From Escherichia phage p000y, in sequence record MK047718.1: DNA of 64,000 bases, one strand, 5' to 3'. The notes under the pieces were generated by a model, which did no database searches, was not told the DNA's origin, and saw only the letters and a program-made list of their open reading frames with translations. Both the position numbers and the translations under genes were made by a program. Positions 15,976-44,903 of the stretch are shown here, in pieces (the first letter of the stretch is position 1; every line of letters starts with the position of its first letter).

Positions 15976-16005
15976 GTTTACATAAGGATGGTGGTGTGTT
16001 ACTAT
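15976..16005 (+). promoter_or_regulatory. T4-type early promoter (GTTTACA -35, 17-nt spacer, TACTAT -10) upstream of ipI
   Basis: Hexamers read directly from sequence with sigma70 spacing. Confidence 0.55.
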
Positions 16006-16039
16006 CATCCTATCAAATAAACAACCTCAAGGAAATAAA

Positions 16040-16327
16040 ATGAAAACTTATAAAGAATTTATATCACCTGCTGCTAACGTTTCTACTCTGACCGAAGCAA
16101 CCCTTACTTCCGAAGTTATTAAAGCAAACAAAGGCCGTGAGGGTAAACCAATGATTAGTCTGGTTGACGGCGAAGAAGTAAAAGGTACTGTTTACTTAGG
16201 GGATGGATGGTCTGCTAAGAAAGATGGCGCTACTATTGTTATCTCTCCGGCTGAAGAGACTGCACTGTTTAAAGCTAAGCATATTTCTGTAGCTCAGCTT
16301 AAAATTATTGCAAAAACTCTTCTGTAA
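16040..16327 (+). CDS. ipI: internal protein I (IPI-type injected anti-restriction protein precursor)
   Basis: 95 aa; N-terminal capsid-targeting sequence MKTYKEFI followed by prohead-protease-type L-x-E sites; T4 IPI is 95 aa. Confidence 0.85.
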   Translation: MKTYKEFISPAANVSTLTEATLTSEVIKANKGREGKPMISLVDGEEVKGTVYLGDGWSAKKDGATIVISPAEETALFKAKHISVAQLKIIAKTLL

Positions 16328-16330
16328 GTA

Positions 16331-16360
16331 GTTTACACGCTGATAGGACTATGTTATAGT
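16331..16360 (+). promoter_or_regulatory. early promoter cassette (GTTTACA ... TGtTATAGT) with flanking inverted repeat ATAGGACT/AGTCCTAT
   Basis: -35/-10 with 17-nt spacer; 8-bp inverted repeat brackets the -10. Confidence 0.6.
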
Positions 16361-16397
16361 AGTCCTATCAAAACAAATGAGTAAATGGAGAAATAAA

Positions 16398-16583
16398 ATG
16401 AAACGCGCTGAACTGATTCGTAATGTTGCTGTAGTAATTGCTTCAATGGCTTTTAGTTTTTCGATGTTTGTAGGATTCATTTGCGGACTACTGACAACAA
16501 CCGAAAATTCTATCTCATTGGTAGTAGCATTTCTAATCGGCTTAATCGCTATCGTTATGGATAAAATTGCAAAAGGTGAATAG
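16398..16583 (+). CDS. small membrane protein, hypothetical
   Basis: Internal ATG with GGAG SD inside track ORF 16377..16583; hydrophobic core. Confidence 0.6.
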   Translation: MKRAELIRNVAVVIASMAFSFSMFVGFICGLLTTTENSISLVVAFLIGLIAIVMDKIAKGE

Positions 16584-16584
16584 A

Positions 16585-16965
16585 ATGTATAAAGTGTACG
16601 CGGATTATCAGGCTAATCCATCTGAAAAGCCAGGTTGTCAAATTGGATGGGCTCATGATACTTTGCTTGAAGCAGTAGATGCTGCTCAAAAATTAGGATA
16701 TAAATATGTAGAGATTGTTCAACCGACAGGAAAAGTTATTACTCTTGAAGAGTTCAATAATATTAAACCGAACTTTTTACTTTTTGCAGGTGATAATTAT
16801 TATCCTCGCGGTGGATATGCTGATTTAATCGCGAAAGCCGCTACTGAAGATGAACTCCGTGACATTATCAAAGAAAATGAGAACAACCTGATGTATGGTT
16901 CTAATCGCTTTGATTGGTGGCAAATTGTAAATGCCCATACTCATACTATTGTTGATGAAGGTTGA
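16585..16965 (+). CDS. hypothetical protein
   Basis: ATG 16585 with AAGGTG SD inside track ORF 16567..16965. Confidence 0.6.
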   Translation: MYKVYADYQANPSEKPGCQIGWAHDTLLEAVDAAQKLGYKYVEIVQPTGKVITLEEFNNIKPNFLLFAGDNYYPRGGYADLIAKAATEDELRDIIKENENNLMYGSNRFDWWQIVNAHTHTIVDEG

Positions 16966-16967
16966 TA

Positions 16968-17255
16968 ATGATTCTTTATGCTAAAGTATCGTCTATTGAA
17001 AATGGATATAAATATGATCAAGACGCGGCTAAAGCCTTGATTGATGATTATGGCATTTTAACATGTTTTGAAGTTGAAAAGGTTTACATTGACCGTTCAT
17101 CTTCTCAAATTAAATTAGTGAAGGAAGACCGTAAATTTAATACAGTAAATTTTGATTTCTTTATTGAAACGGAAAAAGGTCCTCTTGAATATGATATTTT
17201 CAAGAATCCTTTGGGTCTTGACTGCATCGTAAATATGTATTATCATAAATGGTAA
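16968..17255 (+). CDS. hypothetical protein
   Basis: ATG at 16968 inside track ORF 16962..17255. Confidence 0.6.
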   Translation: MILYAKVSSIENGYKYDQDAAKALIDDYGILTCFEVEKVYIDRSSSQIKLVKEDRKFNTVNFDFFIETEKGPLEYDIFKNPLGLDCIVNMYYHKW

Positions 17256-17352
17256 ATATGCTTTAAGAATTATTTGTTATTATTAACTCATATCGCACTG
17301 ATTAATACCCTCTATCATCAAGGGTTCTTGTTAGAGAGCCTTTGTTAATAAT

Positions 17353-17425
17353 TGGGAATTAGCCAAGTTGGTAAGGCACTGGATTTTGATTCCAGGATGC
17401 AAAGGTTCGAGTCCTTTATTCCCAG
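17353..17425 (+). tRNA. tRNA-Gln (anticodon UUG)
   Basis: Manual cloverleaf: acceptor TGGGAAT/ATTCCCA, anticodon loop TTTTGAT, T-arm AAAGG-TTCGAGT-CCTTT. Confidence 0.8.
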
Positions 17426-17426
17426 C

Positions 17427-17513
17427 GCGAGAATGGCCAAATTGGTAAAGGCACAGCACTTAAAATGCTGCGGAATGATTTCCTTGTGGGTTCGAGTCCC
17501 ACTTCTCGCACCA
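17427..17513 (+). tRNA. tRNA-Leu (anticodon UAA), long variable arm, CCA encoded
   Basis: Acceptor GCGAGAA/TTCTCGC, anticodon loop CTTAAAA, T-loop TTCGAGT. Confidence 0.8.
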
Positions 17514-17518
17514 AATTT

Positions 17519-17592
<74 letters not shown>

Positions 17593-17602
17593 ATTTAATT
17601 TA

Positions 17603-17676
17603 CTCCGTGTAGCTCAGTTTGGTAGAGCGCCTGATTTGGGATCAGGAGGTCCAAGGTTCAAATCCTTGTATGGAGA
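17603..17676 (+). tRNA. tRNA-Pro (anticodon UGG)
   Basis: Acceptor CTCCGTG/TATGGAG with G-U pairs, anticodon loop TTTGGGA, T-loop TTCAAAT. Confidence 0.75.
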
Positions 17677-17678
17677 CT

Positions 17679-17768
17679 GGAGGCGTGGCAGAGTGGTTTA
17701 ATGCACCGGTCTTGAAAACCGGCAGTCGCTCCGGCGACTCATAGGTTCAAATCCTATCGCCTCCGCCA
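17679..17768 (+). tRNA. tRNA-Ser (anticodon UGA), long variable arm, CCA encoded
   Basis: Acceptor GGAGGCG/CGCCTCC, anticodon loop CTTGAAA, T-loop TTCAAAT. Confidence 0.8.
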
Positions 17769-17773
17769 ATTTT

Positions 17774-17849
17774 GCTGATTTAGCTCAGTAGGTAGAGCAA
17801 CTCACTTGTAATGAGAAGGTCGGCGGTTCGATTCCGTCAATCAGCACCA
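17774..17849 (+). tRNA. tRNA-Thr (anticodon UGU), CCA encoded
   Basis: Acceptor GCTGATT/AATCAGC, anticodon loop CTTGTAA, T-loop TTCGATT. Confidence 0.8.
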
Positions 17850-17850
17850 A

Positions 17851-17925
17851 GGCCCTGTAGCTGGAAGGTTCAAGCAAGCGACTCATAATCGCCAGATGGT
17901 GGTTCAATTCCACCCAGGGCCACCA
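17851..17925 (+). tRNA. tRNA with anticodon CAU (Ile lysidine-type as in T4, or Met), CCA encoded
   Basis: Acceptor GGCCCTG/CAGGGCC, anticodon loop CTCATAA, T-loop TTCAATT. Confidence 0.7.
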
Positions 17926-17937
17926 AATTATGAATTA

Positions 17938-18024
17938 GGGGAGTTATCCCGTAGAGGTAGCGGTGTGGACTGTAAATCCATTGTCATTGCGACTCGGGTG
18001 GTTCGACTCCATCACTCCCAACCA
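17938..18024 (+). tRNA. tRNA-Tyr (anticodon GUA), long variable arm, CCA encoded
   Basis: Anticodon stem GTGGA/TCCAT with loop CTGTAAA, T-loop TTCGACT; acceptor has G-A at pair 1-72, so ends are approximate. Confidence 0.65.
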
Positions 18025-18028
18025 ATTT

Positions 18029-18103
18029 GGATGTGTAGCTCAATGGCAGAGCGATCGCCTGTTAAGCGATTGGTTATAGGTTCGAATCCTATCACGTCCG
18101 CCA
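18029..18103 (+). tRNA. tRNA-Asn (anticodon GUU), CCA encoded
   Basis: Acceptor GGATGTG/CACGTCC, anticodon stem ATCGC/GCGAT with loop CTGTTAA, T-loop TTCGAAT. Confidence 0.75.
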
Positions 18104-18107
18104 AATA

Positions 18108-18184
<77 letters not shown>

Positions 18185-18202
18185 ACTTTAAGTGAGGAAA
18201 AT

Positions 18203-18547
18203 ATGAAAGGCAATGTTTATCTGGTAGTTCATGATTTAACGTTTTATTTTAATGAATATGATACAGTTATTTCTCATCGATTGATTAATTCACTTTATCA
18301 GCATGCCGATTACATCTATGTTCAAAATGAATTCGGTCATTGGAAGTTCATTAAAAACCGTTCTGGGTTAACTAGTTTTGAATACTTTGACCGTAAAGAC
18401 CTTTTAAACGAAATTCCATTGCAACATCGGTTCCAGAAACGCGAATCATTATATTATTGCCGTCATATACCAAACGCAGAATGTGCCAATGAAGCGATTA
18501 ATCTATGGCGTAGACGTAGAGAACAAATTGATGATATGCCAAAATAA
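18203..18547 (+). CDS. hypothetical protein
   Basis: ATG 18203 with GAGGAA SD, immediately after tRNA-Arg; track ORF 18155 start overlaps the tRNA. Confidence 0.6.
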   Translation: MKGNVYLVVHDLTFYFNEYDTVISHRLINSLYQHADYIYVQNEFGHWKFIKNRSGLTSFEYFDRKDLLNEIPLQHRFQKRESLYYCRHIPNAECANEAINLWRRRREQIDDMPK

Positions 18548-18858
18548 GAAGCCGGGTCGCTACCGGTAAGTCGTCGGACTGATGTTCCCTGAGTAAGGAC
18601 TGGTCTTAATAAATCTTTATGATTCGTTAATATCCCCTTACATCACAGCAGAAACGGCGCACAGAATTATCGATTCGAGGAAATATCTTTGCCGTAAGCC
18701 GAGTAGCGTTTTTGACGGAACGTTCGGATATGGTCGAGATATGGCCTTTTAAAAATATTGAGTAGCGTCAACTGCTTAATAACCGGGTTCGAATCCCGGC
18801 GTTTCGTACAAACATTTGCCTTAGCAGGTGGGACCCCAACAAGGTTGCCGCAAGGCAT
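18548..18858 (+). ncRNA. putative stable small RNA region (position equivalent to T4 species 1/2 RNAs); contains a tRNA-like T-arm
   Basis: About 310 nt without a convincing plus-strand ORF between a CDS and a strong terminator; contains CCGGG-TTCGAAT-CCCGG T-arm-like hairpin. Confidence 0.3.
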
Positions 18859-18887
18859 AGCCCCTTCCGAAAGGTTGGGGCTTTTTT
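18859..18887 (+). terminator. rho-independent terminator (AGCCCC...GGGGCT + T6), copy 1 of a repeated stem-loop
   Basis: GC-rich hairpin followed by TTTTTT. Confidence 0.7.
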
Positions 18888-18931
18888 GCATAATAATAAA
18901 TAGATAAGTTAATTAACTTAGGAAAAGTAAC

Positions 18932-19396
18932 ATGAAGTCATATGCAGAATTTTTGACTGAACAATCTAGTTCAGATGTAAAAGCCGCAGCAATTGCAGCA
19001 ATTCAAGCAGGTAAATATTCTTATAAAGACGCCTCTGATGAAGAACGTTTCCGTTTTATTAGAGATTTTAAAGCTGAAGGTTTTACTAATGCTAATACTG
19101 TTAGCCGAGTTTTTAAAAGCCTAGCTGCATCAGGTGAATTGTTCCAGAAAGCTACAGGTAAAGCACCAGCACCAAAAGCGGACCCTAAAGCAGCTCAAGA
19201 AAAAAATATCGCCAAAGGAATTATTTCTAAGTATGAAGCAATTCTTAAAGAACTTTTGGTAATCAAAACTGAAGGTCAGAAACTAGCTCGAGCATATAGC
19301 TTCAAAGATAATCCTCACGCTCATAGCCTTGAGTATGTTGAAGATATCCAAAAACTTATTAAAGACCGTATCTGGTCTGCTAAGCAAATTAAATAG
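18932..19396 (+). CDS. internal-protein-like protein with capsid-targeting sequence
   Basis: 154 aa; N-term MKSYAEFLTEQ matches the IP capsid-targeting consensus MK(T/S)Y(Q/A)EF(I/L)xE. Confidence 0.65.
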   Translation: MKSYAEFLTEQSSSDVKAAAIAAIQAGKYSYKDASDEERFRFIRDFKAEGFTNANTVSRVFKSLAASGELFQKATGKAPAPKADPKAAQEKNIAKGIISKYEAILKELLVIKTEGQKLARAYSFKDNPHAHSLEYVEDIQKLIKDRIWSAKQIK

Positions 19397-19401
19397 TAGA
19401 A

Positions 19402-19429
19402 AGCCCCTTCCTTACGGTTGGGGCTTTTT
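19402..19429 (+). terminator. rho-independent terminator, copy 2 of the repeated stem-loop
   Basis: AAGCCCCTTCCTTACGGTTGGGGCTTTTT. Confidence 0.7.
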
Positions 19430-19462
19430 GGCATCTAGGGCATAAAAATATTTCATAAAGAT

Positions 19463-19491
19463 GTTTACTTCTTCCCTAGATGTGTTACTAT
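19463..19491 (+). promoter_or_regulatory. early promoter (GTTTACT -35, TACTAT -10)
   Basis: Follows terminator copy 2; 16-nt spacer. Confidence 0.55.
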
Positions 19492-19519
19492 AGACCTATC
19501 AAAACATGAGGAGAATATT

Positions 19520-20023
19520 ATGAGTCTTTACACTGAACTGAATAAAAAATCTGAAGAATCTGCTGAAACTATTTTTAAAAACGTGCAAAAGCGTATTTTA
19601 GAAAAGATGTATAACACTGCAGCTAAAGGTGAAAAATCTTGCCGGTTTCCGATGAGGTGTTCTTCCGATTTATGCGCAAATACTATTGAATGGCTGGAAA
19701 GTGAAGGTCTTACGGTAGAGAAAAACCCGGCGACTTCTATTGATAACGAATCATATATTAGTATTTCTTGGGATAAATCAAGGGTAGAAGAGAAAGATGG
19801 TGATTGGGTTGTAGATGTTAAAACTTCTGATGGTGGACGTTCTGTTGAAGTTTCAGCTGTAGTTAAAGGTACCCACGAACAAAGGACTTGGGGTTGGGGT
19901 GGTGAAGAAAAAGAAATTGTTCTTAGTGTGATTGCCAGGTCAACTAGTAATAAAATTGCACAAAGCATCATTGACGCTGCAATTGCTGAAGCAGAAAAAA
20001 TTTGCAAAATTAAAAATAAATGA
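19520..20023 (+). CDS. hypothetical protein
   Basis: 167-aa ORF with GAGGAG SD after early promoter. Confidence 0.65.
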   Translation: MSLYTELNKKSEESAETIFKNVQKRILEKMYNTAAKGEKSCRFPMRCSSDLCANTIEWLESEGLTVEKNPATSIDNESYISISWDKSRVEEKDGDWVVDVKTSDGGRSVEVSAVVKGTHEQRTWGWGGEEKEIVLSVIARSTSNKIAQSIIDAAIAEAEKICKIKNK

Positions 20024-20052
20024 TGTACAAGCACCAAGGATGGTGATACTAT
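20024..20052 (+). promoter_or_regulatory. early promoter (TGTACA -35, TACTAT -10)
   Basis: 17-nt spacer; spacer contains the shared AAGGATGG motif. Confidence 0.5.
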
Positions 20053-20082
20053 AGACTTATCAACTACAGAGGAGTAAACAAA

Positions 20083-20247
20083 ATGACTACTTTAATTATT
20101 TGGTTCGATGAAAATGAAGAAACATACTGTGTGAATATTGGTGAAAGTCCAATGCCTGAATTTGAATCCTCAGATAAAAACTCTGTTGTATCTTGGGCTG
20201 AAGGTTATAAAGCAGCTAAAGGTGACGTTGAAATAATTTACATCTAA
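20083..20247 (+). CDS. small hypothetical protein (54 aa)
   Basis: Below track cutoff; ATG with AGAGGAG SD directly after promoter. Confidence 0.45.
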   Translation: MTTLIIWFDENEETYCVNIGESPMPEFESSDKNSVVSWAEGYKAAKGDVEIIYI

Positions 20248-20265
20248 GTAAGTTTATGTTATAGT
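20237..20265 (+). promoter_or_regulatory. early promoter (TTTACA -35, TATAGT -10)
   Basis: 17-nt spacer. Confidence 0.5.
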
Positions 20266-20293
20266 AATCACATCAAATCAAGAGGAAAATAAA

Positions 20294-20521
20294 ATGGCTA
20301 AAGTTAGTATTGATGTCGTTGATTATGAATACACCGAAGAAGTTATTCGCAACCGACACCCTGAAGTTCATATCGATTCAGTCCAAGATTCCAAGTTCTG
20401 GACAACTGAGCTTAATCTGAGTGGTCCTTATGAAGCTGTTAAGAAGTTCATGGTTGAAGAATACTGCGAAGGCATGCACCCCGAAGACGCAGAGTTTTAT
20501 GTCAATTTGATTAAAAAATAA
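20294..20521 (+). CDS. hypothetical protein
   Basis: 75-aa ORF with SD. Confidence 0.6.
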   Translation: MAKVSIDVVDYEYTEEVIRNRHPEVHIDSVQDSKFWTTELNLSGPYEAVKKFMVEEYCEGMHPEDAEFYVNLIKK

Positions 20522-20556
20522 TTTACAAACTCTTGAGAGCAGAGTATAATGCTCTC
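20522..20556 (+). promoter_or_regulatory. early promoter (TTTACA, 17 nt, TATAAT) with 6-bp inverted repeat GAGAGC/GCTCTC bracketing the -10 (operator-like)
   Basis: Read from sequence; near-duplicate cassette at 50995-51029. Confidence 0.6.
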
Positions 20557-20590
20557 ATGGATAATAAACCACCAATTGAAAGGTAATAGT

Positions 20591-21184
20591 ATGAACACAC
20601 TGAAGAAACTTGTTGAATTCATCCGCACTAAACTGGGTACTGCTATGGCTAAAAATCTGACTGTCGAAGAACAGTATAACGCAGCTGCAGATAAGTTGAT
20701 TACCCAGATCAAAGAACTAAAAACGGCTTCTGTTAAATCTATTAATGAAGAAAAACGTATTCGCGAACTTGTTAATGAAAAGAACAAACAAGCCGCTTCT
20801 AAGGAACGTGAAATTCGTAAGCTCCTGGCTGAAGGACAAGATGTTACCATGCATGCTAAGCTTGGTCTTCTGTATCGTCGAACTGCCGAACAACTTAATA
20901 CAAAAGCTGACGGGTACGCCGCTATGCGAATTGAAATTGCTCGTAAGGTGGTTGAACTTGACGATGCTCGTCAGAACCTGGCAATCAAACTCGAATACAT
21001 TCGTGAAACTCGAGCAGCCAATGCCCTTGGTATCTCTACGGCTGATGATGTAATTGAAATCGCTGCACTGACTAAGGTTGATATCGAAGACACTCTGACT
21101 CGTGTTGAAACGTTCAATGGCACTCCAGCTGGCGTCGAAACCACTTCTGCTGATGTACAAGAATATATTAACTCTTTGAAATAA
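20591..21184 (+). CDS. coiled-coil protein, hypothetical
   Basis: ATG 20591 inside track ORF 20549..21184; heptad-rich. Confidence 0.65.
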
Positions 21185-21193
21185 AATAATACG

Positions 21194-21214
21194 GAGGACT
21201 CCGGTCCTCCTTTT
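21194..21214 (+). terminator. rho-independent terminator
   Basis: GGAGGACT-CCGG-TCCTCC hairpin followed by TTTT. Confidence 0.65.
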
Positions 21215-21233
21215 GGATAATAAAGGAGTTAAC

Positions 21234-21836
21234 ATGCGAAACCAAAATAATGATATTGACTCAATGTTCGAAGAGTTCCGAGATAAGGTAAATCCACCTA
21301 CGTCTTTAGTTGATTCATTACGATATGTTGCAACTGGACGTAAATGGTACTGGTCGTCTTCTTATGAGACTACTGAGAAAACGGCTAGCCATAGCAGAAA
21401 ATCTTTATTAGCCCCAGGTATTATGATTCATGATATCGGAGCTATTGCTAAACTAGTTGCAGACCATGATATTAGATTCACTGATTTCGTTGCTCCTACG
21501 TGGTCTGTTTGTTGTTTAAACACTGAATGGGAATATATCAGCGAACGCTCTGAAGATTATTATGGTTTTAGAGATAAGCTTTTAAGGTCTAACATGTTTT
21601 ATATCGATACTGAAGTTCTAGTCGATAATAAAAAATATTACTTTACGTTAATCATCGATTCCGAAACTATGTATGAAGGCAAGCCTTTGCTTAAAAGAGT
21701 TGATGCTTTAAGTGCTATTGATGCGCTTTATGAAACTATGGTTGTTAGTCCTAATTTCACTAACAATTTAATCCTTGAGCAATTTATTATGGAATGTAGA
21801 GAATATGTCAAAGCCAACCCTATACATGCCAAGTAA
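21234..21836 (+). CDS. hypothetical protein ending in FIMECR motif
   Basis: ATG 21234 with AAGGAG SD (track ORF begins at TTG 21213). Confidence 0.65.
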   Translation: MRNQNNDIDSMFEEFRDKVNPPTSLVDSLRYVATGRKWYWSSSYETTEKTASHSRKSLLAPGIMIHDIGAIAKLVADHDIRFTDFVAPTWSVCCLNTEWEYISERSEDYYGFRDKLLRSNMFYIDTEVLVDNKKYYFTLIIDSETMYEGKPLLKRVDALSAIDALYETMVVSPNFTNNLILEQFIMECREYVKANPIHAK

Positions 21837-22200
21837 GCCCTGGGCGTATGAATACAAGCGTAAATTAATCCCAAATGAAGTACTATTTGGCCCTATTTTA
21901 GCTTTAGCATTTTTAATCTTTATGATTATAGGAGCTGTTTTAGATTCTAGTGAAGTTATATCGTCTGATGCAGCATTTTCATTAATGTTCGTCGCACCAC
22001 TTATTGTACCGTTTTTATTAATGCCTATTAATTGGGTAGGATATTGGCACCAAGGCCGTCATCACAGAGCCCGATTAAGAGAATGGAAAGTTCAGTGCGC
22101 AAAAGCCCAAGCTCGGTATGATGAAGCTGTTAAAAAGTATGAATATGAAGAAGCTATGGAATTCGTTAAGGAAATAAGATGCAAAAGCCTCAACTCTTAA
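21805..22200 (+). CDS. membrane protein, hypothetical
   Basis: Hydrophobic segments; start uncertain (21805 or 21826), overlaps upstream gene. Confidence 0.5.
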   Translation: MSKPTLYMPSKPWAYEYKRKLIPNEVLFGPILALAFLIFMIIGAVLDSSEVISSDAAFSLMFVAPLIVPFLLMPINWVGYWHQGRHHRARLREWKVQCAKAQARYDEAVKKYEYEEAMEFVKEIRCKSLNS

Positions 22201-22538
22201 CCGTATGGCCTTCTCTTGGTGAGAACATTCTAATTTTTATTATGAGTATTGGCATGGGATTTGCCTTTGGATTAGTTGGATTTCTTATTGACGGCGTTGT
22301 GTTAGGATTTATAGGGAACACTGGTGGATTCACAGACCAATGGCAGGACTTACGGTATACCCAAGCCTTTGCATCCATCGCATCATTTTGTACTGTAGTC
22401 TATTTTTACTACGATTTTATAAACCACAACAAGAAAAATAAAAAGGTTTACGCTTCTCAAATGATTAGTTATAATGAACTCCTAGCTAGACGTGAAAATG
22501 AAACAATAGAAAACTTTATTAAGGAATGTAGAAAATGA
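22179..22538 (+). CDS. membrane protein with C-terminal FIKECR motif
   Basis: 119-aa ORF, two hydrophobic helices. Confidence 0.6.
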   Translation: MQKPQLLTVWPSLGENILIFIMSIGMGFAFGLVGFLIDGVVLGFIGNTGGFTDQWQDLRYTQAFASIASFCTVVYFYYDFINHNKKNKKVYASQMISYNELLARRENETIENFIKECRK

Positions 22539-22840
22539 GTAAGATTATTGAAATTAAAGTACCAGAGTTTAATGATGCCAAATCCGCTTCAGATGCAATT
22601 TATAAACTTCTGAATCAAGCTGAACGTATCGAAGAAGAAGCAACAAAGATCGCAGACCAATATGCAGTATCGTTTTCTGTAGGTGATTATGGTAGCGGTC
22701 GTACTTATTATCCTAAGGGTGAAATCGTATCCCAGTGGATGAAAGATGAAATTGAAAATAATGGCGGCGATGTTAAGCGTGAAGGTAATGGATACGTTAT
22801 TACTGAAGGTGCTTGGGTTTCGTCTTCTGCGTTGTGCTAA
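22535..22840 (+). CDS. tandem paralog 1 of 3, C-terminal WVSSSALC
   Basis: 101-aa ORF; shares C-terminal motif and junction sequence with the next two genes. Confidence 0.65.
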   Translation: MSKIIEIKVPEFNDAKSASDAIYKLLNQAERIEEEATKIADQYAVSFSVGDYGSGRTYYPKGEIVSQWMKDEIENNGGDVKREGNGYVITEGAWVSSSALC

Positions 22841-22849
22841 GGAATCATT

Positions 22850-23122
22850 ATGTCTAAAGAACAAACCGAACTGGCTGAAGCTGTAGCAAAAATCTATGCA
22901 GCTATTGAGGCTGCCAAAGAAATTGCTGATAAACAAAACACAACATTCAACTTGTACCCAGCTTATGGTATGGGTGGAACCTATCATTCACCCGGACATC
23001 TTAAAGCCGATCTTGAACGTTGTACAAAAAACGGCTATGCTGAATGGGCTGACGTTTACCAATACGACTACAACCTGAGCCTCGAAACCGGTGGTTGGGT
23101 CGCATCTTCTCACACTTGCTAA
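22850..23122 (+). CDS. tandem paralog 2 of 3, C-terminal WVASSHTC
   Basis: 90-aa ORF. Confidence 0.65.
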   Translation: MSKEQTELAEAVAKIYAAIEAAKEIADKQNTTFNLYPAYGMGGTYHSPGHLKADLERCTKNGYAEWADVYQYDYNLSLETGGWVASSHTC

Positions 23123-23131
23123 GGAAACAAT

Positions 23132-23329
23132 ATGTCTCGTGAATTAGATTGTGCTGTACGTACGGCAGTAGCTGCTCTGGAAAACCTGTTCCAAATTGCA
23201 ACAGAAGAACGCGAAGAAGTTACATTATGGATTGAAGATAACGCAGGTCTGAATCTCCAGGACGCGATCTCATTATCCCACAATAGTATTACTGTTCAAG
23301 GCTGGGTATCATCTAGTTATTCTTGCTAA
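23132..23329 (+). CDS. tandem paralog 3 of 3, C-terminal WVSSSYSC
   Basis: 65-aa ORF. Confidence 0.6.
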   Translation: MSRELDCAVRTAVAALENLFQIATEEREEVTLWIEDNAGLNLQDAISLSHNSITVQGWVSSSYSC

Positions 23330-23334
23330 AACAG

Positions 23335-23363
23335 TTTACAACAAGATAGGGCTATGTTATAGT
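23335..23363 (+). promoter_or_regulatory. early promoter cassette (TTTACA, 17 nt, TATAGT)
   Basis: Same cassette type as 16331. Confidence 0.55.
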
Positions 23364-23391
23364 AGTCCTATCAAATTAAATGGAGTCCACA

Positions 23392-23631
23392 ATGATTTAT
23401 TACGAAAGTATCGGAACTGAAGTAGTTGCTAAAACTATTAGTCGTGAAAAGTTTGCAAAGATATTCGATATGCGTTATAAAAAATCTGAACATAAAGGCA
23501 TCCGATTCGAAGATGCGCACTGTACAATTTGCCCTTATAATGAAGACATAAACGGTACAATCGTTCCATTGGTAGAGGCTTCACATGTTGACCTCTGGGA
23601 TGAATATAATATCGCATGTCGTGAAATTTAA
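23392..23631 (+). CDS. hypothetical protein
   Basis: ATG 23392 after GGAG SD (track ORF 23380). Confidence 0.55.
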   Translation: MIYYESIGTEVVAKTISREKFAKIFDMRYKKSEHKGIRFEDAHCTICPYNEDINGTIVPLVEASHVDLWDEYNIACREI

Positions 23632-23659
23632 GTTAATGAATTAATCCGAGGAAAATATT

Positions 23660-24616
23660 ATGATGTTAGTTATTGGTTCTCGTGCACTTCACTATCACGG
23701 TCTTATTGATTCTAGCGCTATTAAAAATAGTGATTGGGACTTTATTGCGGATCAATGTTCTTGGAATGCATTCAAAAATCAAATGATGGGTGTATATGTT
23801 CACCAAGATAACCCTGATGTCCAAGTTTTCAAATGCTTCCATAATGGACGCGAAACTCATTTTGAAGCATATATTGTTCCGGCAATCACTAATGTCCGTG
23901 AATTAGTCGGTGAACTCACTCCTGAAGATTTCACGTCTTCTTATGACCTTTTAAAATACGCCAAGAAAAATTTGACTAAAGACCGTTTGAACGGGTTTTA
24001 CTGGGCAACTCCCGAGATATGTCTTGCAATTAAGATGTCTCATCGTTTCAAGAAAAATAATCCATTCTTTTTAAAGACTATGAATCATATTCAGTATCTT
24101 CGTGGTAAAGGTGTTACACTGAACGATGAACTTACTGAAATTATGCTGAAACGCCAGAAAGAAACCTTGAATTATGCTCACCCAGTTCTTGACACTTCTA
24201 AAAGTGCGTTCTTTAAAGATGACATCTATACATATGACCATGATACTATTCATGAAGCCATTGCACTAACTGACCAGCCTGCTTATAAGTTTTATATGAA
24301 AGAAGGCTCAGAAGTTATGACATCACGCGAGAAGTTCGAATCATTACCAGAAATGGTTAAATTAGCCGGTGTATATGAAGAAGCTTGTGTATTAGCTCTT
24401 GAACGTTCACAGATTCCTAACGACTTTAAAATCCATCCACGTGATAGTTTTATGATGGCCCTTGAAAAGGTCTGTACATCAATCACATCAGGATGGTTCC
24501 GTGAGTTCGCTTGGGAAAATTATAGCAAAGTAGTAAGTATGTACCAAAGCTTAGGACACGACGATTACGTCAAGCGTTTCAAACAAAACTTTCATATGGT
24601 AAAACCTTTCAAATAA
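23660..24616 (+). CDS. predicted nucleotidyltransferase-fold protein (Pol-beta superfamily motif GS...SDxD)
   Basis: 318 aa; N-terminal VIGSRALHYHG...SDWDF fits the minimal NTase motif hG[GS]x(9-13)Dh[DE]. Confidence 0.55.
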   Translation: MMLVIGSRALHYHGLIDSSAIKNSDWDFIADQCSWNAFKNQMMGVYVHQDNPDVQVFKCFHNGRETHFEAYIVPAITNVRELVGELTPEDFTSSYDLLKYAKKNLTKDRLNGFYWATPEICLAIKMSHRFKKNNPFFLKTMNHIQYLRGKGVTLNDELTEIMLKRQKETLNYAHPVLDTSKSAFFKDDIYTYDHDTIHEAIALTDQPAYKFYMKEGSEVMTSREKFESLPEMVKLAGVYEEACVLALERSQIPNDFKIHPRDSFMMALEKVCTSITSGWFREFAWENYSKVVSMYQSLGHDDYVKRFKQNFHMVKPFK

Positions 24617-24629
24617 TTTCACAAAACAG

Positions 24630-24658
24630 TTTACAAGGTCTGTAGTTGTTGATACTAT
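24630..24658 (+). promoter_or_regulatory. early promoter cassette (TTTACA, 17 nt, TACTAT)
   Basis: Read from sequence. Confidence 0.55.
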
Positions 24659-24696
24659 AGACCTATCAAAACAAATGAGTGAATGGAGATATAAAA

Positions 24697-24897
24697 ATGA
24701 CTACTTTGAATAAACGTTTCGGTAAAGCTAAACCTGGTTGTGCAGCAGAACGTCGTTATGTTTTCGCTCAGTTAGAAGATGTAGAGTATCAGATTAATCA
24801 AGTTCACATTACTGGTATCGAGCCTATGTGTGGCCTTGAAGCTCTTCGTGAAGTTCGTGATGGGTATCGTCGTGACATCGAAGAAATGTCAAAATAA
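24697..24897 (+). CDS. hypothetical protein
   Basis: ATG 24697 after GGAG SD (track ORF 24679). Confidence 0.55.
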   Translation: MTTLNKRFGKAKPGCAAERRYVFAQLEDVEYQINQVHITGIEPMCGLEALREVRDGYRRDIEEMSK

Positions 24898-24898
24898 G

Positions 24899-24927
24899 TG
24901 TACAAACTGATAGGGCTATATTATAGT
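24899..24927 (+). promoter_or_regulatory. early promoter cassette (TGTACA, 17 nt, TATAGT)
   Basis: Read from sequence. Confidence 0.5.
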
Positions 24928-24955
24928 AGTCCTATTAAAACATGAGGAGAATATT

Positions 24956-25261
24956 ATGAAATTAGGCGAAACCAACCGAATTGGTCTTTTAACAATATTT
25001 GCATCACCTTTTTACGCAGCTCTTTCTGTTGCAGTATTACAAAAGGCTTACGATATGGATGGTGTTCCTGGTTTTGTATTCTTATCGCCGTTTTTGCTAT
25101 TCGTTGGAGCATTGTTATTATATGCCACGACTAGTTTCGACCATAATGTCTGGGTTAATTATAAATGTAAATTGTCTGAAGAAGAACATGCAGAAGCTCG
25201 TAAAAAAGCTATTGAATCTACCAATCTAGAAAATTTCATTAAAGAATGTCGAGGAAAATAA
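24956..25261 (+). CDS. membrane protein with C-terminal FIKECR motif
   Basis: 101 aa, two hydrophobic helices, GAGGAG SD. Confidence 0.65.
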   Translation: MKLGETNRIGLLTIFASPFYAALSVAVLQKAYDMDGVPGFVFLSPFLLFVGALLLYATTSFDHNVWVNYKCKLSEEEHAEARKKAIESTNLENFIKECRGK

Positions 25262-25262
25262 T

Positions 25263-35202: not shown

Positions 35203-35214
35203 GGCATCTATCAG

Positions 35215-35242
35215 TTTACTTCTCCTCAGGTTGTGTTATAGT
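35215..35242 (+). promoter_or_regulatory. early promoter (TTTACT, 16 nt, TATAGT)
   Basis: Immediately after terminator copy 3 (stem-loop + promoter cassette). Confidence 0.55.
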
Positions 35243-35269
35243 AAACCTTACTTACTAGAGGAGAACGTT

Positions 35270-35456: not shown

Positions 35457-35663
35457 ATGCTTTACGATTATACTGGAAAATCTGAAGACGGTGTACTTGA
35501 ACTTTTACCTGAAAGCGCTGAAGATGATGATATGGTGGTGATGTTTTGTAAAAATGGCCCTGGGGATAAGGGATGGATTTATCTTCGTCAAGAAAATGAC
35601 TTAATTGTTTTGGACCCTAAACAAGTTGAAGAACTTTATCAACATTTAAAACACAATCGGTAG
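35457..35663 (+). CDS. hypothetical protein
   Basis: ATG with GAGGAT SD inside track ORF 35430. Confidence 0.5.
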   Translation: MLYDYTGKSEDGVLELLPESAEDDDMVVMFCKNGPGDKGWIYLRQENDLIVLDPKQVEELYQHLKHNR

Positions 35664-35692
35664 TTTACATCTTGGTAGGACTATGTTATAGT
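35664..35692 (+). promoter_or_regulatory. early promoter cassette (TTTACA, 17 nt, TATAGT) with inverted repeat ATAGGACT/AGTCCTAT
   Basis: Near-identical to cassette at 16331. Confidence 0.55.
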
Positions 35693-35720
35693 AGTCCTAT
35701 CAAAACAAACGGAGAACAAA

Positions 35721-38312: not shown

Positions 38313-38331
38313 GGGACCTTCGGGTCCCTTT
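38313..38331 (+). terminator. rho-independent terminator
   Basis: GGGACC-TTCG-GGTCCC followed by TTT. Confidence 0.6.
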
Positions 38332-38359
38332 AGGGGGTTAAAATATTTTAAAAAAGTAG

Positions 38360-38387
38360 TGTACATGCTTTTAGGATATGTTATTAT
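38360..38387 (+). promoter_or_regulatory. early promoter (TGTACA, 16 nt, TATTAT)
   Basis: Read from sequence. Confidence 0.5.
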
Positions 38388-38425
38388 AGACCTATCGAAA
38401 CGAAATGAGTAAATTGGAGAATAAA

Positions 38426-39831: not shown

Positions 39832-39834
39832 TTG

Positions 39835-39862
39835 TTTACAAGGTCTATGGTTATGTTATTAT
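39835..39862 (+). promoter_or_regulatory. early promoter (TTTACA, 16 nt, TATTAT)
   Basis: Read from sequence. Confidence 0.5.
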
Positions 39863-39889
39863 AGACCTATCAACTACTGGAGGTAAAAC

Positions 39890-40417: not shown

Positions 40418-40479
40418 ACGCTTTACCCAAGGACGGGTTATAATGGTTTTGAGTTCCAATTCAATCTGAGGAAATAGTT

Positions 40480-41475
40480 ATGAGCATTACATCTGATGCG
40501 ATAAAACATGAAATTAACGGTTTATGTGCTTCACAGATTAAAGTGTGGTTTAAAGACCATAATGATCGCAGAGCGCTTAATTATGAACGAATTGCTATCC
40601 AAGTTCATCAATTACTGGTTAGTAAATTTGATTTTCATATGCCGTCTGAAATCTATACTAATCTACCGCAAGCGCTTATTAAAGCGTGTAAAGGCTACGG
40701 AAAATCAATGGCTGATGGAATCTTCAGCGCGCTGAATAAACTTAACGTTCTGTCGATGATTAACTCTAACAATATCCTGCGTAATCTAGGACGTACTGAT
40801 TTGTTCGGTCGTGAACAGTGTAAAATGCCTTTGAAATGGATTGTTGCTCATCTTAACGAGAACCAAACACGTTTTATGGCCGTAACAGCACGTTTACAAA
40901 TGGGCCTAGATCGTCAGATGAACTTTAAAACTCATCCACGTTATTCAGGTTCAACTGACTTTTATAAATGTGAGCTTCAAAAGATTGCAGGCAAAACTGT
41001 CTTAGTAGTTCGTGTAACGTTTGAAGGACGTCGTCAAGGATATTTTGACCTAATCGGCTCTGGTCTCAAACATTGTGGATTTATCGACGAAGTTGATATC
41101 AAGCGAGACGGCACTGGATACCGTATTGGGTATGTTTGTACTCTTAAAGAAGAGATTTCAGGACCAGCACCAGGACTAAAAGACGTTAGATATAAAGACG
41201 AGCTAGTTGAAGAAATAAAAGAAGTTGAATACGATATCAACCAAGAAGATGCTCTTAAAGACCTTATTGACGAACTAAACCAAGACGTTATTCCGGTTCA
41301 GAAATTTGAATCAAAACATGCTGAGCAAATCAAATACTTTGAAGCTTTGATTAACGAACTTAATGTAACTATTCAACAGACTGACGATGAAATCTCACGA
41401 TTAGCAGGCTTAAATGGTAAAAATAAAACAGAACGAGCTAATCTTATTCAAGTAGTAAAACTTCTTAAGGAATGA
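40480..41475 (+). CDS. hypothetical protein with C-terminal coiled coil
   Basis: 331-aa ORF. Confidence 0.65.
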   Translation: MSITSDAIKHEINGLCASQIKVWFKDHNDRRALNYERIAIQVHQLLVSKFDFHMPSEIYTNLPQALIKACKGYGKSMADGIFSALNKLNVLSMINSNNILRNLGRTDLFGREQCKMPLKWIVAHLNENQTRFMAVTARLQMGLDRQMNFKTHPRYSGSTDFYKCELQKIAGKTVLVVRVTFEGRRQGYFDLIGSGLKHCGFIDEVDIKRDGTGYRIGYVCTLKEEISGPAPGLKDVRYKDELVEEIKEVEYDINQEDALKDLIDELNQDVIPVQKFESKHAEQIKYFEALINELNVTIQQTDDEISRLAGLNGKNKTERANLIQVVKLLKE

Positions 41476-41504
41476 TGTACAACCAAGGATGGTTGGAGTA
41501 TAAT
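41476..41504 (+). promoter_or_regulatory. early promoter (TGTACA, 17 nt, TATAAT), copy A of duplicated promoter
   Basis: Spacer CCAAGGATGGTTGGAG identical to copy at 42496. Confidence 0.55.
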
Positions 41505-41530
41505 AAATTTTTCAACATGAGGAATATAAA

Positions 41531-42490: not shown

Positions 42491-42495
42491 ATCAG

Positions 42496-42524
42496 TTTAC
42501 AACCAAGGATGGTTGGAGTATAAT
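42496..42524 (+). promoter_or_regulatory. early promoter (TTTACA, 17 nt, TATAAT), copy B
   Basis: Near-identical to 41476-41504. Confidence 0.55.
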
Positions 42525-42552
42525 GAATCTATCTTAACGAGAGGAAAATATT

Positions 42553-43497
42553 ATGACACGTTCACATTACATTGATTATTTTGCAGGTCTTATCGCTAAT
42601 GTTCATGCCCAACGTGCTTCTGGTTCATTAGGATTTGATGTTCCACACCGAGATGTAGTAAGTGGTATTCTTCGCGATTTTGGTACATATACCGGCCAAG
42701 AAAATCATATCTGTAAAGATACTCAAAATGCGTATTCTCATTCATTAGGGACACTGCTTCAATGGTTCAAACGTTCTCGTTTATTATCTTCTACTGTAGC
42801 TCGCGATAACATTAAAAACTTTATGAAACCGAGCTTTATTAAATCTGTGACATCTAAAACCGATTTGGTTGAATTCACTATTGTTAATGATGTTAAAAAG
42901 ACTCATTTAGCTGATTGGTTATCTACCATTCCTGAAACTAAATTTGCTGATAAATTTGCTTGTGAATTCAATAACCAAGTGAATATGCTTTTTAAACATT
43001 CTCGTAAATTATTCACTGGCGGTGATGGTCGTACAAATAAAGTTCATGTTAAAGATTGGGTTACTGCAGTATTCAAACCAACCGGTAATGGTAACGCATC
43101 ATTATCAATTGATATCCAGGTTCCTTATTACTACTCACGTAATCTCGGTACCATGAAAGCCGAAGAAATTAAGAAGCACAATAAAACCGTTCGTTCGCTG
43201 TCTTATAAACTTCGTATGATGTTACAGACTATGGATGTTGTTGAAATGTTCGACGAAACCGAAGATAACGGTTCAATGTTATTCAGTTCTCGAATTAAAA
43301 TTAAACTGAAGAACCCTAATGTGTTTAAGCCTATTAAAGAACCTAAAGCAGAAAAGGTTGATATCATGGCTGAAGAACGTGAGTACCTCAAATCTCGTCT
43401 GAAAGAAGTCGAAGCCCAGATTGCAGAACAAACTAAATCGTTAAAAGCTCTGAATGCGAAAGCGGATGGTTTACGAAATGCCATTGAGGTGTTATAA
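42553..43497 (+). CDS. hypothetical protein with C-terminal coiled coil
   Basis: 314-aa ORF. Confidence 0.65.
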   Translation: MTRSHYIDYFAGLIANVHAQRASGSLGFDVPHRDVVSGILRDFGTYTGQENHICKDTQNAYSHSLGTLLQWFKRSRLLSSTVARDNIKNFMKPSFIKSVTSKTDLVEFTIVNDVKKTHLADWLSTIPETKFADKFACEFNNQVNMLFKHSRKLFTGGDGRTNKVHVKDWVTAVFKPTGNGNASLSIDIQVPYYYSRNLGTMKAEEIKKHNKTVRSLSYKLRMMLQTMDVVEMFDETEDNGSMLFSSRIKIKLKNPNVFKPIKEPKAEKVDIMAEEREYLKSRLKEVEAQIAEQTKSLKALNAKADGLRNAIEVL

Positions 43498-43802
43498 TGA
43501 AACTACGTCTTCTAGAGGATATTGATATGAGCACTAATCATGGCTTGGTTAAGTTTATTGACGATAGTTCAAAGATTGAATTTGTTCAGCGAGATAAAAT
43601 CCACGGTGAAGAAGAGTTCGTTCCTCCGGCATGGAACGAAATAATGAAAATGGTTGAACGACGTGAAAATGCTGCCAAATCGGCAGCAAAACATCCATGC
43701 CCGGAATGTGGAACTATCCAAGTCCAACTGGTTAACTGGACCACTGATAACTTGAAATTGAAATGCCGTAAATGCTTCCACAAATTTGAGAGAACATTAT
43801 AA
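43497..43802 (+). CDS. zinc-ribbon protein, hypothetical
   Basis: CPEC...CRKC motif pair; start may be internal ATG. Confidence 0.55.
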   Translation: MKLRLLEDIDMSTNHGLVKFIDDSSKIEFVQRDKIHGEEEFVPPAWNEIMKMVERRENAAKSAAKHPCPECGTIQVQLVNWTTDNLKLKCRKCFHKFERTL

Positions 43803-44215
43803 TGAGATATAGCCTTCGTTGTTTTATCGCAGCTTTAGTTTTTGCTATTATTCCATTCATTTGGAACAGCCAGAATACTTACATGGAAACTAAAGTAATT
43901 CCTGTGGAGGTAGTGGAATTAATCTCAGGTCAATCTACAGGAAAATATTCTAAATTAGAATTTATTGCAGTCTATAAAGATGAGCAAGGACGAGTTTTTG
44001 ACAGGCATGTATCACCATCGTTTTATACGCTTCTGAATAAAGGTGATACGATAGCTATAGAAATTCGTGAGATGGATATCAAACAAACTACTAAAGATAA
44101 CTTGATTTGGTTCTTTGGTACGGTGTTGTTGGTTTCTATCTGTATCACAGGTTTTATTACATGTATTGTATTTGGCATTGCATATTTAATCGATGAAAGG
44201 AAAAATAATGTTTAA
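43802..44215 (+). CDS. membrane protein, hypothetical
   Basis: 137 aa, N- and C-terminal hydrophobic helices. Confidence 0.6.
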   Translation: MRYSLRCFIAALVFAIIPFIWNSQNTYMETKVIPVEVVELISGQSTGKYSKLEFIAVYKDEQGRVFDRHVSPSFYTLLNKGDTIAIEIREMDIKQTTKDNLIWFFGTVLLVSICITGFITCIVFGIAYLIDERKNNV

Positions 44216-44471
44216 AGTGTACGGGTACGACTCTACTATTCATAAATGCATTTATTGTGATAATGCGAAACGATTGCTGACTGTTAAGAAACAGCCATTT
44301 GAATTCATTAATGTTATGCCAGAAAAAGGTGTTTTTGATGATGAGAAAATTGCTGAGCTTCTGGTTAAGCTTGGACGTGAATCACAAGTCGGATTGACTA
44401 TGCCCCAAGTGTTTGCTCCTGATGGAACTTCGATTGGTGGCTTTGACCAACTACGAGAATATTTTAAATGA
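44208..44471 (+). CDS. nrdC: glutaredoxin NrdC
   Basis: MFKVYGYDSTIHKCIYCDNAKRLL... near-identical to T4 NrdC by recall; 87 aa. Confidence 0.92.
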   Translation: MFKVYGYDSTIHKCIYCDNAKRLLTVKKQPFEFINVMPEKGVFDDEKIAELLVKLGRESQVGLTMPQVFAPDGTSIGGFDQLREYFK

Positions 44472-44824
44472 CATATTCATTAAATCTTAAAGATTTCCAA
44501 GATGTATACGAAGTTTGTGCCAATGAACTTGGTCCTGATGCTCCAACTATTATTGAAGTTTTAAATGTGCTCCCTTCGTCATTAGCTTACGAAGCCAAAT
44601 CATGGGGTTGGAACGACACTGTCGTTCGTGATGACCTTTACGTCCTGATGAACGATATGATGGTTAAAAAGGCAGAACCGGTTGCACCAATGGTTACCAT
44701 TACCGTTGAAGAATATAATCGCCTGCAAGCCATTGAAGAGCTTCTGTGGAACATTGAATGTGACCTGCCATCAGGGCTAGAATCCTGGATTGATTATGAA
44801 GAGCTCAATAAACTCCGGGGTTAA
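44468..44824 (+). CDS. hypothetical protein
   Basis: 118-aa ORF. Confidence 0.6.
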   Translation: MTYSLNLKDFQDVYEVCANELGPDAPTIIEVLNVLPSSLAYEAKSWGWNDTVVRDDLYVLMNDMMVKKAEPVAPMVTITVEEYNRLQAIEELLWNIECDLPSGLESWIDYEELNKLRG

Positions 44825-44874
44825 ACCGTGGTATTCTGCTCGATGGGAGACTGTCGAGCCAGACGTCGAAACAG

Positions 44875-44903
44875 TTTACAACGACGAAGAAACATGTTAT
44901 GAT
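44875..44903 (+). promoter_or_regulatory. early promoter (TTTACA, 17 nt, TATGAT)
   Basis: Preceded by a short hairpin. Confidence 0.5.

Follow-up and report, generated by a model that had tools for sequence, protein, structure and literature searches.

What is the element that recurs between the small early genes of Escherichia phage p000y, and does it do more than start transcription? We analysed 64,000 nt of this genome (MK047718.1; the whole stretch is called the window), in which a first-pass annotation had described at least 18 repeats of one promoter module at positions 15976-44903. Motif searches by regular expression and weight matrix find 19 strong copies in that range, and the count stands. 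The modules are very probably sigma-70-dependent early promoters of the T-even phages, of the PeSL type, named for its unit of promoter, stem-loop and Shine-Dalgarno sequence (SD) (Arbiol et al. 2010, PMC2839356; Comeau et al. 2014, PMC4122927). The pairing between the arms of their inverted repeats is conserved as structure and is under selection.

Shigella phage JK36, a Mosigvirus (the RB69 group), is collinear with window positions 1-44484 at 98.1% identity and matches 15900-25900 at 97.7%, while T-even phage matches number in the hundreds; judged by these alignments, the window is that of a Mosigvirus, an RB69-like T-even phage. Its + strand is the early-gene strand, with 57B, an ipI-like gene, the tRNA cluster, nudE, e, denV, regB, vs and tk, and further rI, the nrdC.x genes, pin, 49 and nrdD/G, in T4-like gene order. 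The range of the cassettes is the classic variable early region of T4-type genomes.

A recurrent early promoter

The window was scanned with a regular expression (NT[TGA]TAC, 15..17 nt, TAnnnT) and with a two-block position weight matrix (PWM) covering both promoter boxes. The matrix returns 22 strong modules, all on the + strand, namely the 19 within 15976-44903 plus those at 49569, 50270 and 50995; at this high threshold neither the - strand nor shuffled sequence gives any match. A low threshold adds weak sites at 22446, 43469, 48127 and 26449, together with one weak match on the - strand and about two in the shuffles, and 50695 is an additional, weaker promoter-like site. Chance as the origin of the motif and its repeats is ruled out by the motif counts, permutations and shuffles. 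Neither a generic sigma-70 scan (74 found, 62 expected) nor a generic terminator scan (77 found, 72 expected) separates the cassettes from background; since the former does not discriminate, the signal resides in the extended consensus.

Aligned, the 22 sites read as an A-rich, UP-like stretch, GTTTACA, 16-17 nt ending in TGT, TAYWRT, AGaCCTATCAAAAC, SD and ATG. The conserved start region after the -10 box is AGaCCTATCAA(A/C), and the SD and ATG lie 25-35 nt past the -10. By sigma-70 geometry and the numbering of Nolan et al., +1 would be the seventh base past the -10, the A of ATCAA. All sites are co-oriented with the early genes and directly upstream of them. With the JK36 genes mapped onto the window, the cassette-bearing gaps measure 55-80 nt and mostly open at the stop codon of the upstream gene; the cassettes serve as markers of the phage's early transcription units and account for these very regular gaps between its small early genes. 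Most sites are intergenic, as first described, but 22446, 43469 and 44874 fall inside coding sequence. A downstream leader said to be shared, CAAAACAAATGAGTAAATGGAG, did not hold up: it is exact at two sites only (16369, 24667), with an 81% variant at 38398, and the widely shared portion is just ATCAA(A/C).

This kind of promoter is already known, and the copies are orthologous to promoters predicted in 2006. Nolan et al. (2006, PMC1524935) listed 58 predicted early promoters (Pe) of RB69 with coordinates, and when the window is mapped onto RB69, 24 of 25 mappable sites fall on them at a constant offset of 14 nt. This, and the fit to the published PeSL description, bears out the first-pass assignment to the promoter/stem-loop kind of T4-type phages. 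The same matrix run over 40-80 kb of T4 gives 18 sites, all on the early strand, with orthologous promoters upstream of ipI, trna.4, denV, regB, the mobD.2-like gene and nrdC.8. T4 early promoters consist of UP, -35, TGn and -10 elements plus extra consensus regions (Hinton 2010); those of T4 and RB69 have in common with the window the GTTTAC -35, the 17±1 nt spacer, TGn, TAnnnT, the A-rich upstream stretch, the orientation and the downstream genes. A few cassette gains and losses distinguish the window from RB69, which lacks 19463, has one promoter where the window has 24629 and 24898, and has two where the window has 38359.

The PeSL consensus of T4 and PST is TTTACW-N17-TAYWAT with an AGNA-loop-TCNT stem (Comeau et al. 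2014, PMC4122927), and the commonest stem core in the window, AGGA...TCCT, matches it. In phi1 and RB49 the stems lie mostly between the boxes or over the -10 (Arbiol et al. 2010, PMC2839356). The window shares the PeSL layout of stop codon, AT-rich stretch, promoter, stem-loop, SD and ATG, and its cassettes are likewise concentrated in the variable early region, some of them at the edges of indels. The full composite sits in one intergenic space, with stems in 12-14 of the 19 cassettes. The predicted cassettes and promoter-like sites, each called by its first position, are the following (energies in kcal/mol).

15976-16039, + strand, early promoter cassette of the ipI-like gene (ATG 16040): PWM 45.1; hairpin 15985-16011, -14.8, z -3.1; RB69 Pe:77187; T4 ortholog 73939
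16331-16397, + strand, early promoter cassette (ATG 16398): hairpin 16341-16370 (TGATAGGACTAT/GTAGTCCTATCA), fold -17.7, z -4.6; RB69 Pe:76459; leader with a 385-nt LF82-8 insertion at 16373/16387
19463-19519, + strand, early promoter cassette (ATG 19520): PWM 44.5; fold z 0.0, weak spacer-SD pairing only; breakpoints 19457 and 19506; region missing from RB69
20023-20082, + strand, early promoter cassette (ATG 20083): small in-spacer hairpin (CACCAAGGATGGTG); RB69 Pe:72567; breakpoint 20006 in four relatives
20236-20293, + strand, early promoter cassette (ATG 20294): without hairpin, z +1.45; RB69 Pe:72354
20521-20590, + strand, early promoter cassette (ATG 20591): hairpin 20534-20557 (TGAGAGC/GCTCTCA), z -2.8; RB69 Pe:72069
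22446-22475, + strand, weak promoter-like site in coding region: PWM 14.4; RB69 Pe:70143, score 4.9; right edge of a 250-nt LF82-8 deletion
23334-23391, + strand, early promoter cassette (ATG 23392): G.U-containing hairpin 23345-23372, z -4.0; RB69 Pe:69254
24629-24696, + strand, early promoter cassette (ATG 24697): hairpin 24636-24664 (AGGTCT.../...AGACCT), z -3.0; left indel partner
24898-24955, + strand, early promoter cassette (ATG 24956): hairpin 24908-24937, z -4.7; right indel partner; with 24629, a single hybrid promoter (Pe:67959) in RB69
27924-27980, + strand, early promoter cassette of denV (ATG 27981): spacer-SD hairpin 27930-27977 (TTCCTCCAAG/CTTGGAGGAA), -17.8, z -5.5; RB69 Pe:64934; T4 ortholog 65413 with the same pairing in other sequence
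28666-28726, + strand, cassette of an internal-protein-like gene (ATG 28727): without hairpin, z 0.1; RB69 Pe:64193; breakpoints 28651 and 28750
31561-31617, + strand, early promoter cassette of regB (ATG 31618): 14-bp spacer-SD hairpin 31567-31611, -21.6, z -4.9; RB69 Pe:61376
35214-35269, + strand, early promoter cassette (ATG 35270): spacer-SD pairing TTCTCCTC/GAGGAGAA, z -1.8; RB69 Pe:58138
35663-35720, + strand, early promoter cassette (ATG 35721): hairpin 35672-35703, -18.0, z -4.4; RB69 Pe:57689; T4 ortholog 57990 with a 13-bp repeat of unrelated sequence
38359-38425, + strand, early promoter cassette (ATG 38426): overlaps the MotA-box-like ATGCTTTTA; hybrid of two RB69 cassettes; RB69 Pe:55018
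39834-39889, + strand, early promoter cassette (ATG 39890): hairpin 39841-39868 (AGGTCTAT/ATAGACCT), z -2.2; RB69 Pe:53683; T4 ortholog 53943 pairs with the SD instead
41475-41530, + strand, early promoter cassette (ATG 41531): in-spacer hairpin; core identical to 42495; RB69 Pe:52042
42495-42552, + strand, early promoter cassette (ATG 42553): shares its core with 41475; RB69 Pe:51019
43469-43498, + strand, weak promoter-like site at a coding-region end: PWM 11.1; not among the listed RB69 promoters
44874-44903, + strand, early promoter in 49.1-like coding sequence, serving pin: PWM 27.3; RB69 Pe:48639; T4 47452
49569-49625, + strand, early promoter cassette beyond 44903: SD-pairing hairpin 49576-49618, z -3.2; RB69 Pe:43945
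50270-50299, + strand, early promoter beyond 44903, from alignment and weight matrix: RB69 Pe:43242
50695-50733, + strand, early promoter-like site with a 15-nt spacer: 8-bp repeat TAGGAAGA/TCTTCCTA, z -5.1; RB69 Pe:42816
50995-51013, + strand, early promoter cassette (ATG 51014): near-duplicate of 20521 with compensated stem GAGAGA/TCTCTC; RB69 Pe:42515

At cassette 38359 a further motif was noted in 38359-38387, where GTGTACATGCTTTTA overlaps the early -35 with a MotA-box-like TGCTTtTA, and the site may be a dual early/middle promoter.

Pairing of the inverted repeats

An inverted repeat around the -10 had been claimed for many of the sites. The repeat is real, although its literal form, ATAGGACT...AGTCCTAT, is present once; close variants are found at 23334, 24898 and 35663, and the arms at other sites are quite different in sequence. 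To control for composition, the spacer of each promoter was paired with its own 40 nt past the -10 and with the corresponding segments of other sites, which keeps the position-specific composition. The longest Watson-Crick run averages 6.0 bp for a site's own segments and 4.7±0.23 bp between sites, and the duplex energy is -10.2 against -7.5±0.5 kcal/mol; neither own value was reached in 20000 permutations. The T4 promoters replicate this (own -10.5, between-site -7.0±0.6 kcal/mol, 0/20000). RNA folds spanning -35 to ATG were scored as z against dinucleotide shuffles: 12 of the 19 cassettes have z <= -2.2 and two more about -1.9, and over window and T4 cassettes together z <= -2 in 26 of 40, or about two thirds.

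The stems come in three layouts. In the first the stem brackets the -10 and ends at about +4 (15976, 16331, 20521, 23334, 24629, 24898, 35663, 39834), in the second a long stem joins the spacer to the SD (27924 at denV, 31561 at regB, 35214, 49569 and, weakly, 19463), and in the third a small stem lies within the spacer (20023, 41475, 42495).

Orthologous promoters keep the pairing while changing the sequence. For six pairs of positional orthologs between the window and T4, a promoter's own arms pair at -17.9 kcal/mol and swapped arms at -10.6, in the same direction in 12 of 12 cases (p=0.0002). The regB promoter was followed through 16 viral contigs and T4, which fall into five lineages, each with a spacer::SD stem of 11-15 bp. 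The outer parts of that stem differ by lineage: CTAGTTG/CAACTAG, CTTGACTG/CAGTTAAG, CTTTATG/CATAAAG, TGTAAG/CTTACA, and GGGCCA/TGGCCC plus TTTCCTT/AAGGAGA. As the MAFFT alignment sets the SD arms out of register, own and cross-lineage duplex energies were compared instead, giving -18.1 and -10.7. In the most distant relative the stem is missing, and a terminator lies upstream instead.

The pairing also has a strand. Over the 40 window and T4 promoters the whole element folds at -12.1 kcal/mol in the sense and -10.0 in the antisense direction (Wilcoxon p=0.007), with z of -2.89 and -1.77 (p=5e-5). The better folding of the sense strand means that the stems use G.U pairs on that strand, and the bias favours the transcript, or else the non-template strand of the DNA, over duplex DNA. 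A middle-type promoter at about 56688-56745 (AAACGCTTTA-N12-TATAAT) likewise has an inverted repeat on either side of its -10 (ATGTGGT/ACCACAT), after which come ATCAAATTAAATGGAG and ATG; early promoters are thus not alone in having the -10 bracketed (cf. 'PmSL' in Comeau 2014).

What the hairpins may do

The 5' arm sits in the spacer, and the 3' arm lies just past the -10 or on the SD. A transcript from the promoter itself would start about 7 nt past the -10 and so would not carry the 5' arm; the hairpin could therefore form only in RNA coming from a promoter upstream. Read-through of early transcripts into downstream genes is an established route of T4 prereplicative expression (Hinton 2010). 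Secondary structure shields GGAG from RegB. At the cassettes with the long stem (denV, regB, 35214, 49569), read-through RNA would hide the ribosome-binding site from ribosome and RegB, and the local early transcript would be open to translation and to RegB cleavage alike. Arm pairing and folding predict such sequestration of the SD at 27924, 31561, 35214, 49569 and, weakly, 19463. RegB synthesis has been reported to need tight limitation, and masking of the SD at regB would fit. Short stems would form an intercistronic hairpin on read-through RNA, perhaps as a pause site or attenuator or as a stabiliser of 3' ends. A function of this sort in read-through RNA is, in our judgement, possible but somewhat short of probable; RNA folding in vivo, start sites and the effect on translation are all things that we infer here.

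A precedent for the geometry is found in T4, where e, soc, 49 and I-TevI have an SD-sequestering hairpin on long transcripts with a promoter between its arms, so that the internal promoter's own transcript lacks the 5' arm and is translatable (PMC3014915). The same geometry is predicted at denV, regB, 35214 and 49569 of the window. However, the internal promoter of the T4 genes is a late one (TATAAATA) and delays expression, whereas the hairpin cassettes have an early sigma-70 promoter in that place, so that translation would be limited to the early burst, and the late motifs are found elsewhere. Exact copies of TATAAATA on the + strand occur at 34609, 38001 and 45730, at gene ends and directly upstream of the SD of the following gene, and inside genes at 16699 and 17007. 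Two 2010 reviews of T4 do not mention pairing between spacer and SD at early promoters, and a text search gave no mention either; the older T4 literature lies outside that scope.

A broader claim, that promoter-embedded hairpins are a selected feature, acting at the RNA level, of early promoters (and some middle ones) throughout the T-even phages and not a handful of exceptions, we regard as doubtful. If it were true, about two thirds of the early promoters in T4 and in this Mosigvirus would be wrapped in a hairpin that forms only on read-through, and each small early gene would be translatable, and cleavable by RegB, from its own promoter's burst only. The principle known from the four late promoters of e, soc, 49 and I-TevI would then hold for most early promoters too, and the position of a promoter within an RNA hairpin would separate local from read-through mRNA at dozens of early genes. 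The hairpins would be one cause of the abrupt end of early protein synthesis, and a simple rule on what is translated and when would be useful for engineered T4-type phages.

Several points weigh against a role in RNA. Five of the 19 cassettes give no hairpin signal, and for the short stems the proposed function is hypothetical. When only the arms are compared as duplexes, sense and antisense do not differ significantly; the difference appears with the whole element, the -10 included. G.T pairs would favour the sense DNA strand as well, so that RNA and single-stranded DNA look alike in this comparison. The compensatory differences could partly stem from replacement of whole cassettes and not from paired point changes: because one spacer version sits at four sites, such replacement could mimic compensation.

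The original PeSL reading takes the stem-loops as transcription terminators or attenuators that insulate the cassettes, with no translational control. The stems do start at most about 10 nt away from the stop codon of the preceding gene, and one RB49 stem-loop lowered expression of a downstream lacZ, such stems being called effective terminators (Arbiol 2010, PMC2839356). That stem, however, was of the G4/C4 type, set apart in the same paper from the weaker AT-rich stems of the T-even phages. None of 12 bracketing hairpins in the window is followed by a T-run; ATCAAAAC, AAAC or a start codon comes next. Several stems in the window would mask the SD, and four or five hairpins end exactly on it, which termination leaves unexplained. 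The sense-strand bias and structural conservation are further features of the window's pairing set beside the PeSL stems. The three true terminators of the region, by comparison, do have GC stems and T-runs; they are listed here together with one terminator-like hairpin:

18858-18891, + strand, intrinsic terminator copy 1: GCCCC..GAAA..GGGGC plus T-run, repeat family D14; closes the rnaC/rnaD-like region (T4 match 18542-18886) and is followed by an internal-protein-like gene without early cassette
19401-19434, + strand, intrinsic terminator copy 2: D14, 85%; 29 nt upstream of cassette 19463
35174-35207, + strand, intrinsic terminator copy 3: D14, 94%; 7 nt upstream of cassette 35214
38313-38330, + strand, terminator-like hairpin GGGACC-TTCG-GGTCCC: upstream of cassette 38359

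Three near-identical terminators had been described as preceding cassettes; all three D14 copies are real, but only those at 19401 and 35174 directly precede one. We consider it unlikely that the bracketing stems are terminators. Less likely by far is that the repeats act on DNA, either as a cruciform or single-strand hairpin that recruits a nuclease or recombinase or as palindromic repressor operators. Breakpoints do fall inside cassettes, a stem-binding recombination protein has been speculated on (Arbiol 2010, PMC2839356), and the mechanism that shuts off early promoters is stated to be only partly understood. Yet loops of 6-30 nt with AT-rich stems make poor cruciforms, the folding advantage of the sense strand (G.U or G.T) is unexpected for a function symmetric in the duplex, and the crossovers described below fall within the -35 box or in the -10/start region and are not tied to the bases of the stems, while cassette junctions are not significantly hotter than others. 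A common protein operator is ruled out by arm sequences that differ between sites.

Cassettes and recombination

The first-pass annotation held that the cassettes explain why gene content varies, and proposed a comparison of their positions with indel breakpoints in relatives. Breakpoints were taken from megablast alignments of the window with SSE1, LF82-8, RB69 and vB_VIPECOMC06 (ST0, mobillu, APCEc01 and FL31 were left out). In 15900-44480 there are 84 alignment ends in 48 clusters, 13 of which fall within -30..+80 of a cassette -35, although these intervals make up 7.8% of the region (binomial p=5e-5).

In two indels the crossover itself lies within a cassette. In LF82-8, RB69 and VIPECOMC06 positions 24636-24897 are missing and one hybrid promoter stands in their place; its upstream half resembles 24629 and its spacer, -10 and leader resemble 24898, which puts the crossover in the -35 box. 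At the place of the window's hybrid 38359, RB69 carries an additional open reading frame (ORF) between two cassettes; this crossover falls in the -10/start region. These are clean cases of gain or loss of a single gene by crossover inside two promoters. Inserted genes in relatives bear a cassette at their edge, and in LF82-8 the terminator repeat (35175-35203) flanks an insertion of 594 nt. Internal-protein genes are swapped at the leader and first codons (16008-16062, including 16059/16062; 28750; 29058-29090), several of these swaps running through a cassette leader; the polymorphism of the internal protein locus of T-even phages (as described in PMC2839356 and PMC4122927) is matched here by internal-protein-like genes that are likewise swapped between relatives. 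Six small genes (16040, 18932, 27641, 28402/28408, 28727, 29067) were seen to open with the same 25-30 nt or so, encoding MKTY(K/Q/S)EF; these openings are repeat families D8, D9 and D11 and resemble the capsid-targeting leader of T-even internal proteins.

Two pairs of near-duplicates reported at the outset were confirmed. Positions 41478-41504 and 42498-42524 are identical in 27 of 27 nt (51 nt aligned), and 20508-20568 is about 87% identical to 50982-51043 over 61 nt; the similarity of both pairs ends at the cassette edges, and blastp finds no similarity between the proteins that flank them. One spacer version, ATAGGRCT/AGTCCTAT, is present at four sites. Another motif, (C)CAAGGAYGG, occurs in the spacers of five promoters (15983, 20033, 27935, 41484, 42504), and also in a MotA-box-like promoter, ACGCTTTACCCAAGGACGGGTTATAAT, in the gap 40418-40479 ahead of the gene at 40480. 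Its recurrence suggests that these spacers share ancestry although the downstream proteins are without similarity.

Some twenty copies of a 50-60 nt motif in the same orientation would give the recombination machinery of the phage short stretches of homology to work on, and crossovers inside cassettes would add, remove or swap single genes with expression kept, as in the PeSL model. Set against this, 35 of the 48 clusters lie within 25 nt of a gene junction of any kind (junction windows being 20% of the region), and broken junctions are 10 of 18 with a cassette and 18 of 46 without (odds ratio 1.9, Fisher p=0.18). No cassette is involved in many of the whole-gene deletions, which join at 5-15 nt of microhomology. 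Those at 25272/25976, 26440/26660, 33421/33832, 38007/38305, 45538/45725 and 49629/49791 are examples, and overlaps of 5-15 nt between their two alignment blocks in the relative are consistent with short direct repeats at gene boundaries.

One might take the cassettes as independent strong promoters, kept alike by contacts with RNA polymerase and neither mobile nor special in recombination. The junction counts just given and the microhomology deletions without cassettes speak for it, as does the coincidence of the conserved positions with known polymerase contact elements, and much of the breakpoint data is still fairly described in this way. Polymerase does not read spacers base by base, however, and the spacers at 41478 and 42498 are identical in 27 of 27 positions; the copies at 20508 and 50982 are about 87% identical, with a compensated stem, ahead of genes without protein similarity. 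One spacer version at four sites and two indels with hybrid-promoter crossovers likewise count against this reading, and as a full account we find it improbable. We lean slightly towards a role of the cassettes in recombination. They are real recombination substrates, but in this sample of four genomes not significantly hotter than other gene boundaries: breakpoints are enriched in cassettes, and the excess over other junctions is not significant. PeSL recombination partly accounts for the variation in gene content here, in two indels and several internal-protein swaps, and not for all of it, with the caution that most changes in gene content occur at gene boundaries, cassette or no cassette.

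Other features of the early region

Ten tRNA genes lie at 17353-18181 (block 17213-18184; Rfam), as in JK36. A middle-type promoter with a MotA box, ATATGCTTTA-N12-TATTAT, stands at 17259, directly upstream of the tRNA block. At the place of the block SSE1, LF82-8, RB69 and VIPECOMC06 have only tRNA-Met/Arg and an ORF or a homing endonuclease gene; since these four relatives lack the full block, the whole of it is a replaceable module. Over 15-52 kb Rfam finds the ten tRNAs only, and no family on the cassettes or the rnaC/rnaD-like region. The latter, 18542-18886, is 91% identical to T4 rnaD/rnaC, which encode small stable RNAs whose role is unknown, and its end is the terminator at 18858. A perfect GC-rich hairpin at 21193-21210 (GGAGGACTCCGGTCCTCC), followed by TTTTGG, lies in a 49-nt gap after the gene that ends at 21184; it is likely a bidirectional terminator and has no cassette adjoining.

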